DNA of 64,000 bases from an uncultured Alphaproteobacteria bacterium. GTDB taxonomy: Bacteria > Pseudomonadota > Alphaproteobacteria > Rs-D84. Location: NCBI GenBank assembly GCA_944389555.1, contig CALXMU010000002.1, positions 30,271-94,270 on the forward strand. Direction: 5' to 3'. The notes beneath the pieces were generated by a model, which saw nothing but the letters and a program-made list of their open reading frames with translations, did no database searches and had not been told where the DNA came from. The position numbers were made by a program, and so were the translations under genes. Of the stretch, positions 5,842 to 25,755 are shown piece after piece; positions within the stretch are counted from its first letter, which is position 1; every line of letters starts with the position of its first letter.

Positions 5842-6387
5842 ATGAGACATATGAAAGCAGGTCGCACTTTTAATCGCGACACAAACGCTCGTAAGGCATT
5901 GTTTATTGGCCTGGCGAAAAATTTAATTGAAAAAGAACAGATTAAAACGACTTTGCCGAAAGCAAAAGATTTACGTGGTGTCGTTGAGAAATTGATTACC
6001 CGCGCGAAGGTTGATACTGTTGCTAATCGTCGTTTGATTGCAAGTGAATTAGGTAACAATTCTGCGGAAACTGTTAAAAAGTTATTCACTGTTTTGGGAC
6101 CGCGTTATGCCAAACGTCCTGGTGGATACACCCGCGTATTAAAGGCCGGTTTCCGTTATGGTGACGCTGCGCCGATGGCTATTATTGAATTGGTTGACCG
6201 TGATGTGAACGCGAAAAAGGTTGTAAAACCAGCCGCCACCACGGAAGACAAGGCGACAGAAAAGTCCGCGGACAAGGCGCCGAAACAAGAAAAGACCACT
6301 AAAGCACCTGCGGCCAAGGCCGACAAGGATGCCGATGCGGCAAAAGAAAAAAAGCCGGCGACAAAACGTCGCAGCGCGGCAAAATAA
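5842..6387 (+). CDS. rplQ: 50S ribosomal protein L17 with Lys/Ala/Asp-rich C-terminal tail
   Basis: [31 protein letters not shown]. Confidence 0.97.
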
Positions 6388-6414
6388 AAAACGGGGCATT
6401 GCCCCGTTTTTTTT
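6386..6414 (+). terminator. Intrinsic terminator after rplQ
   Basis: AAAAACGGGGC-ATT-GCCCCGTTTTTTTT. Confidence 0.85.
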
Positions 6415-6570: not shown

Positions 6571-6769
6571 GTCAGTGGGTGTTCCATTGACGGGGTGTAG
6601 TAGCCCTTTGTAATTGTCAGAGATGACATAAAATATCGCCTCCACAATTTAGGTTGGAGGGTTGTGAATATCACGAATAAACAACACTATTATTACAATA
6701 GCTACTAACCTCCAACCACCTGAACTTTTTGGTGGTTTTTTCATTCGCAATGAAAAAAGGAGGTTTAGA
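6571..6769 (+). promoter_or_regulatory. Structured 5' leader / attenuator-like element, copy A
   Basis: Hairpin GTCAGTGG-GTGTT-CCATTGAC; GGTTGGAGG (6652-6660) complementary to CCTCCAACC (6709-6717); terminator AACCACC...GGTGGTT-TTTT; homologous to 25004-25212. Confidence 0.75.
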
Positions 6770-7192
6770 ATGAAAAAACATTTAATAATCGTCGGCATAA
6801 TTTGTGCGGCATCAATCCCACCAGCGTATGCAGTCACAAAATGCGTAAAACTAACGTCATCAACAACGTGTACAAGTTACTCTGGCGCGGTCGGTCAGTC
6901 AAATTGGTCAATGACCTGTGGCGGTATAGAAATTCAGGGTGTTGCATTTTGCAGTTCTCAAGATGGTGGTTCAAAGGGTACAATATCCGAAACTGTCACG
7001 ACCATTTCAACCAGTGACTATAACAAACATTGTTGGTGCAAAATGGTTTCACCCGCGGTTTCGTCGTGGGTGTTCAACAACTCGCGCCCGTCCGCCGGCT
7101 CTTGCGCGTACGCTTGCGCGGGCAGCTGTGCGTCCGCCGCTCGGGACTTTGCGTCTTTCCGGTCGGGGCTGTTTAGTGGACTATCTGACTAA
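6770..7192 (+). CDS. Small secreted Cys-rich protein with putative DGR-type variable C-terminus
   Basis: Signal peptide MKKHLIIVGIICAASIPPAYA; HCWCKMVSPAVSSW then CAxxCAxxCA; AGGAGG RBS. Confidence 0.85.
   Translation: MKKHLIIVGIICAASIPPAYAVTKCVKLTSSTTCTSYSGAVGQSNWSMTCGGIEIQGVAFCSSQDGGSKGTISETVTTISTSDYNKHCWCKMVSPAVSSWVFNNSRPSAGSCAYACAGSCASAARDFASFRSGLFSGLSD
7052..7174 (+). other. Putative DGR variable region (VR)
   Basis: Only 7 adenines in 123 nt, all at codon positions 1-2 of NNC codons and none at position 3; NNC/NNT codons alternate with TGY GCG codons. Confidence 0.6.
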
Positions 7193-7204
7193 ACGGGGGC
7201 GAAT

Positions 7205-7483
7205 ATGAAACGAATATTTATTTTAATTATGGCGATTGCGCCGATTGGCGCATTTGCCGCCGCACCGTCAACGTCGTGTCCCGCTGGATATGTTACCGTG
7301 GTGGAAGAATATATGGAAATCGCGAACAGCACGTGTCCCGCTGGATATACATCCGCCGGCGTGGCGGACAGTTGTCTGGCGTCGTCACCAGCCGGTTCGT
7401 GCATAATGTATGCGCCAACCGGGGTAACTTATACCGACAGCAGTGGTTCATATGAATTTACGTCCGCCTGTCCATTGGAATAA
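7205..7483 (+). CDS. Small secreted Cys-rich protein with duplicated CPAGY motif
   Basis: Signal peptide MKRIFILIMAIAPIGAFA; starts 12 bp after the 6770 gene; exact 16-bp repeat at 7276-7291 and 7333-7348. Confidence 0.8.
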   Translation: MKRIFILIMAIAPIGAFAAAPSTSCPAGYVTVVEEYMEIANSTCPAGYTSAGVADSCLASSPAGSCIMYAPTGVTYTDSSGSYEFTSACPLE

Positions 7484-7484
7484 G

Positions 7485-7508
7485 CAAAACGCCCAAATGG
7501 GCGTTTTG
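7485..7508. terminator. Bidirectional intrinsic terminator
   Basis: CAAAACGCCC-AAAT-GGGCGTTTTG between convergent genes. Confidence 0.8.
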
Positions 7509-8369
7509 TTATCTGGTACGTTGTAATATCACAATCATTTCTGAATTGACATTTGTTTTGTCTTTGCGTATGCAGCCAATACGAGCCCAGCGTTTGAATT
7601 TTTTTACAGCATCACGATATGCCGTAATTTTGTGCGCTATACCCCAGTTGCCGGTTTGGGCTATTATCGTGCCACCCGGACGGACGTGGTTGCGCAACGA
7701 CGCCAATGTCTGGTGTATTTGTTGCGGGGTCATATATTCAAATATATTTGACAGATTTATTGTATCGTATTCACCGATCAGATGTGTGTGCAATGATTTT
7801 ATATCCGACCATATGAATTTGAACGGTTCGTGTATTTTGTTACGCATTTGGGCATATTCGTCGTCTGTTGGTACAATATTCGCATAGTACGACGGGTTTA
7901 ATCCGTTACTGAATATGGGATAATCCGCCATTTGCTTTATAAAATATGCGCTGTTTTGCGGAATGTCATCAATCAATGTTCCGATTTGCTTTATATCCGA
8001 TGCGCGATGTGCGGTATGCATATCGGACAACAGCTGTATATATTCCGCACGGGATAATTTCTTTAACGCAGCGGTTTTAATGTCCATTGCCGCTTTGGCA
8101 CAGAAAGACAGGTCGAATGTATCGATTTTTGTTGCGCCGCGCATAGCATAAAACATAGGATGATCACCAGACGCCGCAACGGTCAAAACGCGCGGACCGT
8201 CATTTTTTGTCAGTTCCGATACCCAACGAATATCTTCGTTTGTCAGGACGTACGACGGGGAATAGTTTGAAAAGCCCAACATTTGATTATAAAATGTTGT
8301 GCCGTTCCCGCCGATAATGTATTCAGCGTGGGCATTGTCAATATTTAATCTTGGTGTTGCGTATTTCAT
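7509..8369 (-). CDS. Class I SAM-dependent transferase-like protein (DUF3419/BtaA-like)
   Basis: RVLTVAASGD Gly-loop, IDTFD, YDTINLSNIFEYM, VRPGGTII; family assignment by eye. Confidence 0.6.
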   Translation of the reverse strand: MKYATPRLNIDNAHAEYIIGGNGTTFYNQMLGFSNYSPSYVLTNEDIRWVSELTKNDGPRVLTVAASGDHPMFYAMRGATKIDTFDLSFCAKAAMDIKTAALKKLSRAEYIQLLSDMHTAHRASDIKQIGTLIDDIPQNSAYFIKQMADYPIFSNGLNPSYYANIVPTDDEYAQMRNKIHEPFKFIWSDIKSLHTHLIGEYDTINLSNIFEYMTPQQIHQTLASLRNHVRPGGTIIAQTGNWGIAHKITAYRDAVKKFKRWARIGCIRKDKTNVNSEMIVILQRTR

Positions 8370-8530
8370 TTCGCTCCCTCAGTTATTCTTTACTCAATAT
8401 TATATAGTACAAAATAACCGATTGTCAATATCTGGCGTTTTTTATGTTAAAAATATAATTGCGACAGAAAAAATGCTTTCAATAAATTCATTAAATGTGA
8501 TAAAATCTGATAAATAGGAAGGGCCTTTTT

Positions 8531-11497
8531 ATGAAAAAAATTGCAATTTTTTGTGCCTTGTTGATGGGGATAAGTTTTAATGCAGATGCTGCAACAGCAC
8601 GAAATCCGCGTGGTGTGGCCGAAAGCTCTGATTCTGCGGCAAGCACAACTGTTGCGCGTAGTGCGACTGTAAGTCGTAGTGCAACAAATACCAGATCTGC
8701 TACACCAGCGGCGACAGCGGCGCGTTCTGCAACTGTCGGTCGTAATACTGTGAGTCGTACACCCACCGCAACGACAGCAACTACTGCTACTAATGCAGCG
8801 CGTAGTGCAACTGTAACTGCGCGTGCCGGTACCACACAGAAGGTTATAAATACGGGTACAAGTGTTGCAGCGGCGAATGAGAATGTTGTCGTTAGCGAGG
8901 CTTGCCGTCAGAAATACTACGGTTGTATGGATTCTTTCTGTATGCTTGATAACGATAGTGGTGGTCGTTGTATTTGTAGTGATAAAAATGCCGAATACGA
9001 TGAAATTTTGGCACAAATTGAAGAATTAGATCTGCAATCTTATCAAATGGCGACATATGGCGTTGAAAGAATAGAAATGGGCGACGCTGCAGATGTTGCA
9101 ATTGCTAATGCAAATGCTGTGGCTCAGTCAATTATGGATGAGGCTTCAAAAGAAGAAGAAAAAAAATCTTTGGATTTAACATCTTGGTTGTCTGGCGTTG
9201 ACTTTACAGAAGATAATATTTTCGCAGACACGGAAGGTTTCCAGAGCCCTATTGAAGGTAAAGAGGGTGATGCTTTATATCGTGCCTCTCATGAAATTTG
9301 TATTGAACAGATGCCTGAATGCGCAAATGAAATTTCTATGTTGCAGTTGATGTATGCACAGCAAATAAGAAGTGATTGCAGCGCATATGAAAATAGTTTA
9401 AAGCAGCAGAAAAATGCAAGTGCTCAAAAGTTATACGTTGCGGAACAAGCGTTGCGTGACGCGGCGTTGGAACAGTACCAAAGCGCAAATAAATATGATT
9501 TGGGGCAGTGTACGGTAGAATTTAAAAATTGTATGATAACAACTGGTGGATGTGGGGACGACTTTTCAGGTTGCGCTTCAATAGCGGCATTCGATTCGAC
9601 AAGTACGCGCGGAAATAAAAAAGCAGATACGTATGAAATTCAAGGTACTGTGACAAGTATCGAAATTCAAGAATCTACATATGATATATTGCTATCTAAA
9701 AAGCCTTTGTGCGAAGGCGTTACAAAGCAGTGTCAATTAGTGGCAGATCAAGTTTGGGATACGTTCTTAAAAGAAGTTGCGCCTCAGGTGAAGTCAGCAG
9801 AACTTATCGCAGAAGATAATGCTCGTCAGAATTGCATTGGAAACATCTCTTCGTGCTTCCAAAAAGCATGTAAAGATACAATGGATCCAAATGATCCAGA
9901 CGGCTCATATGATATGTGCTTGACCAGACCTGAAACAATGTTGAATTTATGCCAGGTTCCATTAAATGCGTGTGGTATTTCAACCACATCTGCATCAAAA
10001 GCGCAAGAATCCGATATTTGGGATTTTGTTGTTGCAAGATTGGCATCAATGAGAGTGAATTCTTGTTCAACTCAATTTAAGGAATGTTTGCAATCAGCAG
10101 ATCGATGCGGTGAAGATTATTCTCAGTGTATTGGTCTTGATACAGATACAATTATGCGTTTGTGTCCGTATGATACATTGGTTGGGTGTCAGCAAGTATA
10201 TGGTGAAACAGATATTCGCGGAGAGGCCGTTTATGACGAACTGTATAATGTTGCTCAGGGTATTTTCTTAAATATAGACAATAACCTGTTGGAACAGTGC
10301 CAGAATGCCGCAAATGAAGCAATGATTAAAGTTTGTGGTGATGCAGAAAGTTGTAATAACCTGACCGTTGATGATAATATCGGTGCTCGTTCACTTGAAT
10401 ATAAGATTTGTGAATATAGTAATAGTAATGACAGCTTAGATATAAATTATTCATTATGCAGAACGGATATTTCGCAAATTATGGATAGCGAACTAGGGCG
10501 TGTAGACGATGGCTCTACTGCAACACTTGGGGCGGTAAAACCGTTTGCAGGTGTCATAGATGGAATCATATATTGGGAAAGTGTTGAAATAGGTGATGAT
10601 GGCCGCCTGATAAGTGTTGATAAATATTTAGATAATATTGGTGAGGCCGCCAATGATACAACAGAAACCCAAAAAGAACAAATTGCCTCTGAATTGGCTG
10701 TTTTGCAAAGTAGTATAGATACGGCAATCAATGCTATAGAGGCAGACCCAGAAGTTCAATTCTGTATGAGTGGGCGTACAATTGACGGTGTAAATAATAG
10801 AAATGTTGTTGACCGTAGTAATGATACAGCTGGACGTTTCCCAGGATTGACGAAACAAATGCGTATGATAATCGCCAATGCCGCATTGAAGGCCGCAAAA
10901 GATAATTATTATAAGAAATATGATGAATTGAATGAAAAGATGCTGAAAGATTATGCAACATTGGGTGAACGAATGGCAGAAATTCAAGGTGAAAATGCTT
11001 TGGATGCCAGAAGAGAAATTGCACGTGAAGCATGTGTGAATTTCGCAGAGTTATCCAGTTTACCGAAATCCCCTAATCCGCCAAAAGGCGCGTTTGGTAA
11101 GATTTTGTCGGCAGTTGCGATAACCGCTGCGGCCGTGGCGATACCGTTTACAGCAGGGTCTTCGGCACTTCTATTAGCGGGTGCAACGACTTGGGCTTCT
11201 GGTGCGGTTGCTGCGGGTGCTGGTGCGGTTGCTGGAATCGGTTTACTTGGTAATGCTGGGTCGGGTGGTGCGAACGGCGCCGATGCGTCCGCACAGTTAG
11301 ATTTAGTTGGTTCAAAGCAATTGAATCAATGGAATTACAAGGAAACAATTACTTCAACATTTGAATGGGATACTTTGGTATGTCATAAGTGCACAAGAAC
11401 ACAACAATGTACAAAAACAAAGAGTCCTTGGTTCGGTAATAAGTATTGTAAAACATGGGCTGACCCAGTTGAAATTTGTGTGGATACCCAGTTCTAA
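8531..11497 (+). CDS. Large secreted Cys-rich protein (988 aa), family member
   Basis: Signal peptide; ARSAT-repeat linker; CRQKYYGCMDSFC...RCICS; ANKYDLGQC; hydrophobic Gly/Ala segment near the C-terminus. Confidence 0.9.
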   Translation: MKKIAIFCALLMGISFNADAATARNPRGVAESSDSAASTTVARSATVSRSATNTRSATPAATAARSATVGRNTVSRTPTATTATTATNAARSATVTARAGTTQKVINTGTSVAAANENVVVSEACRQKYYGCMDSFCMLDNDSGGRCICSDKNAEYDEILAQIEELDLQSYQMATYGVERIEMGDAADVAIANANAVAQSIMDEASKEEEKKSLDLTSWLSGVDFTEDNIFADTEGFQSPIEGKEGDALYRASHEICIEQMPECANEISMLQLMYAQQIRSDCSAYENSLKQQKNASAQKLYVAEQALRDAALEQYQSANKYDLGQCTVEFKNCMITTGGCGDDFSGCASIAAFDSTSTRGNKKADTYEIQGTVTSIEIQESTYDILLSKKPLCEGVTKQCQLVADQVWDTFLKEVAPQVKSAELIAEDNARQNCIGNISSCFQKACKDTMDPNDPDGSYDMCLTRPETMLNLCQVPLNACGISTTSASKAQESDIWDFVVARLASMRVNSCSTQFKECLQSADRCGEDYSQCIGLDTDTIMRLCPYDTLVGCQQVYGETDIRGEAVYDELYNVAQGIFLNIDNNLLEQCQNAANEAMIKVCGDAESCNNLTVDDNIGARSLEYKICEYSNSNDSLDINYSLCRTDISQIMDSELGRVDDGSTATLGAVKPFAGVIDGIIYWESVEIGDDGRLISVDKYLDNIGEAANDTTETQKEQIASELAVLQSSIDTAINAIEADPEVQFCMSGRTIDGVNNRNVVDRSNDTAGRFPGLTKQMRMIIANAALKAAKDNYYKKYDELNEKMLKDYATLGERMAEIQGENALDARREIAREACVNFAELSSLPKSPNPPKGAFGKILSAVAITAAAVAIPFTAGSSALLLAGATTWASGAVAAGAGAVAGIGLLGNAGSGGANGADASAQLDLVGSKQLNQWNYKETITSTFEWDTLVCHKCTRTQQCTKTKSPWFGNKYCKTWADPVEICVDTQF

Positions 11498-25003: not shown

Positions 25004-25212
25004 TCTGGGGGTGTTCCCTGGATGAGGACTTGAAACCTCTCATAGAACGTGGGGCATATGCGTTAGTATGCCGAAGTAACTCCATCCAAATTGGTTGGAG
25101 GGTGGCGATATATTTGAATAAGCCCGCTATTTTCTATGATAGTTTCAAGCCTCCAACCGCCTTCAAAATTTGGCGGTTTTTTCATTCTTTCAAATCAAAA
25201 AGGAGGTTTTGA
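25004..25212 (+). promoter_or_regulatory. Structured 5' leader / attenuator-like element, copy B
   Basis: TCTGGGG-GTGTT-CCCTGGA hairpin; GGTTGGAGG (25093-25101) with CCTCCAACC (25150-25158); terminator AACCGCC...GGCGGTT-TTTT; TTTACT-N17-TAAACT promoter at 24968-24996. Confidence 0.75.
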
Positions 25213-25755
25213 ATGAAAAAACTTATATTTGGGTTTGCTATCGTATGTTTGTATAGTTCGGTCGCTTATGCGGCACAGGATTGTTGCGCAAAATGTGGAG
25301 CAATTCCACATAGTGCATCTTGTAAAAACTCCGATATTTGTAATTGTGAAGACATTGTTACAACTGATTATACTTATGGAATTGTTACAACGCAAAAAGG
25401 AGAACTTTTGGTAAATTGTAACACTATAGCTACCGCTTTTTGCATACACGGCATAGAAAGTTATTCTTGCGCAAGCGGCTTTTATGGGACCGCAAACAAT
25501 TCAACATCTGGATGTACTAAGTGTCCGAGTAACGCCACATGCCGTGGAGGGAACTTTTCTGTTTTTGTCTGTCTACAGGGGTATTATAAAAATGGGGATA
25601 CGTGTTCACGTTGTCCTGGTTTTGGTAGTACAAATGGTACAACAGCTGGTAACGGCGCAGATTCAATAACAGATTGCTATTTGCCGGCTGGGACAAGTGG
25701 AAGTGATGCAACGGGTTCTTTTACGTATACATCTGATTGTTATTATGTGCAATAA
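25213..25755 (+). CDS. Small secreted Cys-rich protein (TNFR/GCC-like Cys modules)
   Basis: Signal peptide; SCASGFYG...CTKCPSNATCRGG, CLQGYYKNGDTCSRCP, ADSITDCY; AGGAGG RBS. Confidence 0.85.
   Translation: MKKLIFGFAIVCLYSSVAYAAQDCCAKCGAIPHSASCKNSDICNCEDIVTTDYTYGIVTTQKGELLVNCNTIATAFCIHGIESYSCASGFYGTANNSTSGCTKCPSNATCRGGNFSVFVCLQGYYKNGDTCSRCPGFGSTNGTTAGNGADSITDCYLPAGTSGSDATGSFTYTSDCYYVQ

Follow-up and report, generated by a model that had tools for sequence, protein, structure and literature searches.

An orphan, recombining cassette of an uncultured alphaproteobacterium with a variable region probably born of a diversity-generating retroelement

The locus and its adenine-poor gene end

The stretch of DNA considered here, hereafter the window, comprises 64,000 nucleotides of an uncultured alphaproteobacterium (GTDB lineage Rs-D84; assembly GCA_944389555.1, contig CALXMU010000002.1, positions 30,271 to 94,270 of the forward strand). 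A gene on its plus strand at 6770..7192, referred to as the target gene, encodes a 140-aa protein with a typical signal peptide (MKKHLIIVGIICAASIPPAYA, about residues 1-21, as predicted from the sequence) and a cysteine-rich mature domain of about 119 aa that contains nine cysteines. The 3′ part of this gene, at 7055..7174 on the plus strand (codons 96-135), is supported by comparison with its relatives as a genuine variable region (VR) of the type produced by diversity-generating retroelements (DGRs). Specifically, NNY codons are set in a scaffold free of adenine, and the region is homologous to the VR and the template repeat (TR) of two DGR loci, L107 and L108, found in related genomes. As to its origin and present state, we favour on balance a DGR-born variable region that now resides in an orphan, multi-copy and recombining cassette of two genes, namely the target gene and a partner gene, o92.

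The first-pass annotation had singled out positions 7052-7174 for their composition, and its account of seven A in 41 codons, none of them in third position, with a TGY GCG scaffold and a GC-rich end, proved accurate in every detail. These 123 nt correspond in frame to codons 95-135 of the 140-codon open reading frame (ORF) at 6770..7192 on the plus strand. They contain 7 A, 42 C, 42 G and 32 T, have a GC content of 68% as compared with about 40% window-wide, and represent the lowest-A stretch of this length on the plus strand of the 64-kb window. The binomial probability of finding seven or fewer A is 6e-11 when calculated with the A fraction of the window and 2e-12 with that of the 5′ part of the gene. 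All seven adenines (7076, 7077, 7079, 7080, 7110, 7124 and 7146) fall in codon positions 1-2 of AAC, AAC, TAC, AGC and GAC, and third-position A is found in 0 of the 41 codons versus 33 of codons 1-94 of the same gene. Pairs of TGY GCG codons alternate with pairs of NNY NNY codons, and the stretch closes with TTC CGG TCG GGG CTG. Three marks of a DGR VR are present: a location at the 3′ end of an ORF, a scaffold devoid of A and variation at positions 1-2 of codons derived from AAY.

The target protein has 365 homologues at 70-99% identity, and no Pfam, NCBIfam or PHROG family matches it. The source organism is an Enterousia-like alphaproteobacterium of the gut, Candidatus Enterousia intestinigallinarum being among the names carried by these homologues and by the members of the 90%-identity cluster of o92. 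An alignment of 120 homologues shows almost no variation at residues 1-102 and 130-140 and none at C112, C116 and C120, and the scaffold CAxxCAxxCA is nearly invariant. The remaining picture is set by 13 hypervariable codons (103, 104, 106, 107, 111, 114, 115, 118, 119, 122, 123, 126 and 127), spanning 7076..7150 on the plus strand, with a column entropy of 2.8-3.6 bits versus about 0 in the scaffold. When codon 107 is set aside, the other 12 columns are dominated by Y, N, S, G, R, D, A and T, with N or Y commonest; Cys stands at 0% and Pro at 0.5%, and K, E, Q, M and W together make up 1.9% of 1,446 residues, versus 17% elsewhere in the protein. The near-absence of these five residues implies that the third base stays C or T. 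At the DNA level, the pairwise comparison of seven cassettes gives differences of 0.69, 0.70 and 0.15 at positions 1, 2 and 3 of the hypervariable codons, the last value matching the background of 0.10-0.15. Family-wide, A is the commonest base at the variable positions, with a share of 31% in the first and 51% in the second codon position. Downstream of the hypervariable codons, the conserved 3′ end of the gene (7151..7193, plus strand; A-S-FRSGLFSGLSD, then the stop codon) lies at a position like that of the initiation of mutagenic homing (IMH) element, and is nearly identical in all cassettes of the window type.

Adenine mutagenesis of AAY codons gives this family pattern, in which positions 1-2 are near saturation with position 3 at background, and ordinary mutation with selection cannot. 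In line with this, the A-specific hypervariability among paralogues that the first-pass annotation had regarded as telling is displayed by positions 1-2 of the NNY codons. A history in which no retroelement ever took part, and in which a surface protein was shaped by ordinary mutation together with strong diversifying selection and a local bias in codon usage, is accordingly hardly credible. Such a history could draw on the comparison of near-identical genomes, in which divergence peaks over the whole cassette and not over the VR alone, and on the divergence of the N-terminal domain, which at positions 1 and 2 is about equal to that at position 3. Nevertheless, point mutation could not saturate positions 1-2 of 13 codons and leave position 3 at background. 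Moreover, 98% NNY-type residues and an A-free scaffold in an A-rich genome would find no explanation, and the homologous VRs described below have a TR, with AAY at 12 of 13 codons, from which they differ by A-only mismatches.

Retroelements beside a paralogous target

In what follows, targets linked to a DGR are called type 1 and those of the window type are called type 2. The scaffold was combined with A-first codons into a pattern specific to TRs, and the scan of 185,579 species-representative genomes with it gave a sole true match, L107. The gene order at this locus is target (147 aa), TR, an ORF named o129, an o92 homologue and a reverse transcriptase (RT) gene. The TR translates as AVSSWVFNNDNGSAGNCANNCANNCANNVQNNADFRSALFSGLG, and the template reads WVFNN.N..AGNCANNCANNCANN; the template pattern that the first-pass annotation had predicted from the window alone (...TGCGCGAACAATTGCGCGAACAAC...) is thus exactly present as a real TR in related genomes. 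Between this TR and the VR in cis, 13 sites differ and all are adenines in the TR. Two differences are exceptions to this: an indel of 3 nt and, at the 3′ end, GG>TT, in a place where a difference between IMH and IMH* is expected. A human-gut genome (L108/L109) shows the same DGR layout at the same chromosomal site (ftsH, lactamase_B, methyltransferase, M23 ... TK, M48), and the TR and cis VR of L108 are separated by 20 A-only mismatches. In the two templates, TR107 and TR108, 12 of the 13 hypervariable codons are AAY, the remaining one, codon 107, being GGT in TR107 and GGA in TR108.

The RT encoded in the DGR loci carries the motifs IGNLTSQ and YCDD. Its best match in the PDB, 8ub7_A, which we take to be the Bordetella phage bRT, extends over the full length with an E value of 9e-44 and aligns IGNLTSQ to IGSLTSQ, as compared with 3e-18 for group II intron RTs. 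Judged by its sequence, the enzyme is Bordetella-bRT-like. In addition, a GC-containing hairpin of 8-9 bp is located 3′ of both cis VRs (GCGTATGC-GAAT-GCATACGC in L108, a 9-bp stem in L107). These hairpins match the target-site element of BPP-1, in which homing requires a hairpin of 7-10 bp, GC-rich and with a 4-nt loop, placed 4-34 bp after the IMH (PMC3240598).

The window target shares 44-54% identity with the cis targets of L107 and L108. In particular, VR codons 111-123 (the central 39 nt) show no conflict with TR107 outside its A sites and agree with it at third positions, a fit that shows common descent of the window VR and TR107. Taken with the hypervariable NNY codons on an invariant scaffold, the related TR and RT with their A-only mismatches uphold the first-pass description of the stretch as a DGR-type variable region.

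Some further features of these loci and scans can be reported. Pfam searches of the small ORFs in the L107 and L108 loci recognised no Avd-like protein. An ORF of 108-129 aa is found between the TR and the o92 homologue (o129, L107 1567-1956; o108, L108 9361-9687); it matches no family and is 90% identical across genomes whose RTs are 68% identical. This ORF may encode an accessory factor that takes the place of Avd, or may overlap with the RNA spacer that priming requires. In the L108 cis target (8369-8815), a 1-nt insertion within the VR relative to the TR leads to a frameshift, and the L107 cis VR has a 3-nt insertion; these insertions reflect either the assembly of a mixed population or a decaying DGR target. 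As for the scans, two of the three matches in the species genomes, L105 and L106, were discarded as tandem repeats. Periodic DNA patterns of the CAxxCAxxCA type matched merely 12-nt tandem repeats in viral contigs, and were replaced by patterns with aperiodic anchors.

An orphan cassette: copies, exchange and the search for a template

The target gene is embedded in a compact cassette. It is preceded by a structured 5′ leader (6645..6769, plus strand), composed of an outer stem (GGTTGGAGG/CCTCCAACC), an inner hairpin and a terminator-like hairpin (CCACC-N11-GGTGG) with a T-run, followed by the Shine-Dalgarno (SD) sequence AAGGAGG. The partner gene o92 (7205..7483, plus strand), which always comes 12 nt after the target, encodes a secreted protein of 92 aa that is rich in Cys, contains CP(A/S)G(Y/F) repeats and matches no protein family. 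Its homologues follow every window-type target, and one also lies between TR and RT in both L107 and L108. A terminator-like hairpin of repeat family D1 (AAACGCCCAAATGGGCGTTTT; 7481..7512, plus strand) closes the cassette, and the next gene, coding for a DUF3419 methyltransferase, converges on it from the minus strand. Copies of the leader are found in the window at 25090-25212 and before each window-type cassette in L037, L038, L113, L114 and L117. The consensus fold comprises 22 pairs, of which six show compensatory changes, and no Rfam family matches at the gathering threshold; the leader may be a new riboswitch or attenuator. The copy at 25090-25212 precedes an unrelated 180-aa secreted Cys-rich ORF (25213..25755), whose C-terminal 21 residues show a weak resemblance to the end of the o92 protein (E 6e-4 in a pairwise comparison).

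Cassettes occupy different chromosomal sites in close relatives. Locus L037 is syntenic with the window over 15 kb (42-57 kb) at 88-95% amino-acid identity, and harbours three target and o92 cassettes in intergenic gaps that are empty in the window (43.8-44.6, 49.54-49.58 and 54.97-55.06 kb); consequently, the cassette behaves as an insertable unit. L038 and L110 are 98.2% identical over 18 kb, and the whole two-gene cassette (L038 10000-10700), with both o92 and the half of the target outside the VR, is 6-24% diverged between them, which looks like the replacement of a whole cassette or a very strong hot spot. Furthermore, clusters of at least 90% identity contain VR mosaics, the halves of which are found again in other cassettes. 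The 3′ half of c4 type ii, for instance, agrees with L117, and P0427 and P0429 match c8 except for N versus K at codon 127. Mosaics of this kind demonstrate homologous exchange between cassette copies, with breakpoints in the repeated TGCGCG scaffold, as one source of the present variation.

In this respect the family resembles the gene conversion systems of Neisseria (pilE/pilS) and Borrelia (vlsE), being multi-copy, with variable segments between short repeats (here TGCGCG) and segmental mosaics common to the copies. It differs from them in that the cassettes carry the DGR signature of NNY codons and A sites. Promoterless silent donors and one expression locus were not found either: all the copies examined have a leader, an SD, a full-length ORF and the partner gene, and so there are, unlike in pilE/pilS and vlsE, no silent copies and no single expression site.

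The window VR itself looks stable. The exact 140-aa protein is present on 27 contigs from many samples; in its cluster of seven members, the residues at all 13 hypervariable positions are shared by six, and the VR is identical throughout in five. The window as a whole is 99.7% identical to a 495-kb metagenome scaffold. This constancy bears on the main competitor of the favoured reading, namely that 7055-7174 is an active remote target, rewritten in trans by a DGR-clade RT and a cognate TR located elsewhere in the genome. Such a TR is predicted to contain ...TGGGTGTTCAACAACTCGAACACGTCCGCCGGCAATTGCGCGAACAATTGCGCGAACAACTGTGCGAACAACGCTCAGAACAAT... (in full, CCCGCGGTTTCGTCGTGGGTGTTCAACAACTCGAACACGTCCGCCGGCAATTGCGCGAACAATTGCGCGAACAACTGTGCGAACAACGCTCAGAACAATGCGTCTTTCCGGTCGGGGCTG). 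The proposal has precedents and circumstantial backing. Chromosomal DGRs with targets lying over 100 kb away from the RT are documented (PMC5758913), related species possess an RT of the right clade, the family-level divergence needs a template that fits the window scaffold, and the substitutions among close variants are biased to adenine states. We nevertheless hold it to be unlikely, for the reasons that follow.

A complete DGR was not found within the window, there being neither a DGR-clade RT nearby nor a TR differing only at adenines. The 64-kb window holds no TR-like repeat (31/60 is the highest ungapped match reached by any 60-nt piece) and no RT detectable by tblastn with the L107 RT, as the first-pass annotation had stated from inspection of the letters. 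Likewise, neither RT nor TR was found within 10 kb on either side of six places with type-2 cassettes (L037, L038, L110, L113, L114/L117 and L127). The known templates do not fit: the window VR has 21-23 non-A mismatches to TR107 and TR108, versus 0-2 between these TRs and their own VRs. The sole genome with RT, TR and a window-type cassette on one scaffold, LIJU14 scaffold_178, holds the L108 DGR, and here the type-2 VR shows 26 non-A mismatches to the resident TR, 3′ end included, and the cis VR shows 0. A cognate type-2 TR would match both scan patterns, and none was found in the pattern scan of the 185,579 species genomes, in the general pattern scan of the metagenome collection or in collections of viral contigs, phages and plasmids. 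The metagenome scan recovered four type-2 VRs (three of them from one human-gut assembly), which serve as positive controls.

The downstream hairpin is also missing. In the window a weak A/T inverted repeat (TTTAGT...ACTAAA, with a 7-9 bp stem and a 10-nt loop) lies 3′ of the VR; a GC hairpin with a 4-nt loop was not found there, and the DNA fold is no better than that of shuffled sequences (z -1.3). GC-containing hairpins occur downstream of DGR-linked VRs only, and type-2 VRs are without them. In addition, the DGR is sporadic, being absent from its usual site beside the M23 peptidase gene in two related species, located through the P0256 and P0273 anchors and not tied to the species of the window. 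In the first of these (P0256; L129-L132) the gene order around M23 is kept. The window and the P0256 and P0273 M23 loci have no genes in common. On the whole, the evidence leans against a retroelement acting in trans on the window copy. The corresponding suggestion of the first-pass annotation is thereby disfavoured, given the misfit of the known TRs, the failure to find a cognate TR in any collection, the missing hairpin and a VR constant on 27 contigs.

Several observations weigh, in turn, against the favoured reading. An RT and its cognate TR may exist in the rest of the genome (about 1 Mb), beyond the searched 64 kb, and the pattern scans need exact scaffold matches, by which a TR with an indel or an altered scaffold is missed. 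Among close variants of the window VR, which differ at sites 7076, 7079, 7080, 7088, 7136, 7145 and 7146, 10 of 12 inferred substitutions involve an adenine state (P about 0.001 by a rough calculation, the events being few and not independent), and all four bases, A, C, G and T, occur at site 7079 across four close variants. This bias hints at continuing adenine-directed change, and no reading fully accounts for it. Moreover, the VRs of the family are saturated while the background divergence is only about 10%, which implies that a fitting template was in use until rather recently; one would expect such a template to exist somewhere still. Finally, the fold described below is a prediction, and Foldseek can miss small folds.

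A different route, without a dedicated template, would be copying from VR to VR: an RT acting in trans would copy cassette mRNAs, mutating adenines, and the cDNA would replace the same or a sister cassette through the shared 3′ end. The lack of a dedicated TR in the searchable data would be expected under this proposal, and the nearly identical 3′ end of all window-type cassettes, the VR segments common to different cassettes and a VR that is extremely A-poor, silent sites included, are consistent with it. The same can be said of the close variants, in which about seven events fall on 7 A sites versus three on 19 non-A variable sites, although these counts are small and not independent. We judge this route quite improbable, however, as the mechanism has no precedent and an RT in the source genome is an assumption, none being found in the 64-kb window. 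Plain homologous recombination explains the shared segments, and A is still the commonest base at variable positions (31% and 51%), contrary to a long-running loss of adenine.

In the reading that we favour, the window VR is homologous to VRs written from an AAY-rich TR by a bRT-like RT in related gut alphaproteobacteria. It would have been written in the past by mutagenic retrohoming, from a template since lost or unsampled. At present it would be inherited and reshuffled by homologous recombination between cassettes, and not rewritten, within a multi-copy orphan family (leader, target and o92) for which no cognate template was found in the collections scanned.

Predicted display domain and relation to known systems

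AlphaFold was applied to the mature protein, with the signal peptide removed and 121 sequences, and returned a model with a pLDDT of 91.9 and a pTM of 0.85, which supersedes a model that included the signal peptide (pLDDT 63). The model contains strands at residues 34-39, 45-50, 53-62, 87-94 and 100-105 and helices at 109-126 and 128-134. The VR corresponds to the last strand (100-105), a loop, the helix 109-126, which carries CAxxCAxxCAxx, and the helix 128-134. The period-4 pattern of two conserved and two variable residues fits an amphipathic helix, and so does the near-absence of Pro. A Foldseek search against 350,542 PDB chains gave no match (best E 3.4, TM at most 0.29), and a profile search of PDB sequences gave 0 matches at E up to 10. 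In particular, no similarity to C-type lectin, FGE-sulfatase or DUF1566 domains or to Mtd, TvpA and AvpA emerged from Pfam, NCBIfam, PHROG, PDB or Foldseek. The missing Foldseek match in the PDB indicates that the VR does not look like a C-type lectin.

The prediction supports a non-lectin, new display fold with variable residues on a helix, and the first-pass proposal of a new DGR target fold, in which a helix and no C-type lectin displays the variable residues, is borne out at this level. According to the model, the VR would form the C-terminal strand-loop-helix of a small secreted protein with probable disulfides. A buried Cys-Ala stripe (C112, C116, C120) would pin the helix to the beta-sheet, and the pairs of variable residues would face outward. 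The variable surface would presumably bind a ligand, and the partner would be the co-transcribed, secreted o92 protein.

The same C-terminal module (…C.C(K/R)…WVF…AG.CA..CA..CA…FR.A) is also the terminal part of secreted proteins, 180-850 aa long, from rumen and gut metagenomes and of one protein on an IMG/VR contig, and no Pfam domain covers it in these larger proteins. The larger proteins are found at L115, L116, L118-L126 and L128, some of them with Listeria-Bacteroides repeat domains, and L116 and L126 have two tandem paralogous VR genes each. A candidate TR at L126 was rejected, being a second, paralogous coding VR with many non-A mismatches.

Surveys found annotated DGR VRs to be systematically C-type lectins, with uncharacterised ones probably lectin variants (PMC8144416), and classes of DGR VRs have been described (PMC5758913). 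A literature search covering DGRs and predicted structures brought up nothing on the target family, and Enterousia was mentioned in none of the 15 best matches of a full-text search. With respect to the C-type lectin proteins diversified by DGRs (Mtd, TvpA, archaeal AvpA and Thermus TaqVP), the window protein is alike in combining a small stable domain with a dozen surface residues, close to the C-terminus, that vary massively. It differs in showing no likeness to them in sequence, profile or Foldseek comparison, and in having the variable residues, as modelled, mostly on one face of a long helix pinned by three Cys.

The canonical DGR of BPP-1 (mtd VR, TR, avd and brt) offers a second term of comparison. 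Shared with it are the location of the window VR at the 3′ end of the target, the A-free scaffold and the NNY codons derived from AAY and, in L107 and L108, the bRT-like RT (IGNLTSQ, YxDD), the A-only mismatches between TR and VR and the GC-containing hairpin after the VR. Unlike BPP-1, the window is without TR, RT and hairpin; L107 and L108 are without a recognised Avd and have two ORFs (o108/o129 and the secreted o92) between TR and RT; and the variable domain of the window protein is predicted to be a beta-sheet plus helix and not a C-type lectin. The multi-target chromosomal DGRs (Treponema denticola TvpA, Legionella LdtA and those of cyanobacteria) likewise have scattered paralogous secreted or surface targets with one VR scaffold in a small genome. 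In those systems, however, every remote VR differs from a single TR only at adenines, whereas VRs of the window type have 21-26 non-A mismatches to the known TRs and the VR is constant across assemblies.

A domain of about 95-120 aa, confidently modelled and with most variable residues on one Cys-pinned helix face, would be an apparent exception to the lectin rule. If a structure confirms the fold, it would represent a second, independent solution to the problem of accommodating massive variation, as well as a compact scaffold for engineered diversification. VRs with the DGR signature appear to persist, multiply and recombine at many loci of gut symbiont genomes of about 1 Mb without a matching template. 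Such template-less persistence would mean that surveys centred on the RT undercount DGR-shaped proteins. Orphan cassettes would also make testable the fate of VRs after the loss of the retroelement, or else a new way of writing them.

Two other features of the window concern cysteine content and base composition. Two large secreted paralogues of about 990 aa, very rich in Cys, are encoded at 8531-11497 and at about 41.7-43.5 kb; they have DNA blocks of about 70% identity in common and contain no Pfam domains. The lowest-T stretch of the window (6184-6412; 5 T per 123 nt) coincides with a Lys/Ala-rich C-terminal extension of ribosomal protein L17 (ORF 5842..6387).

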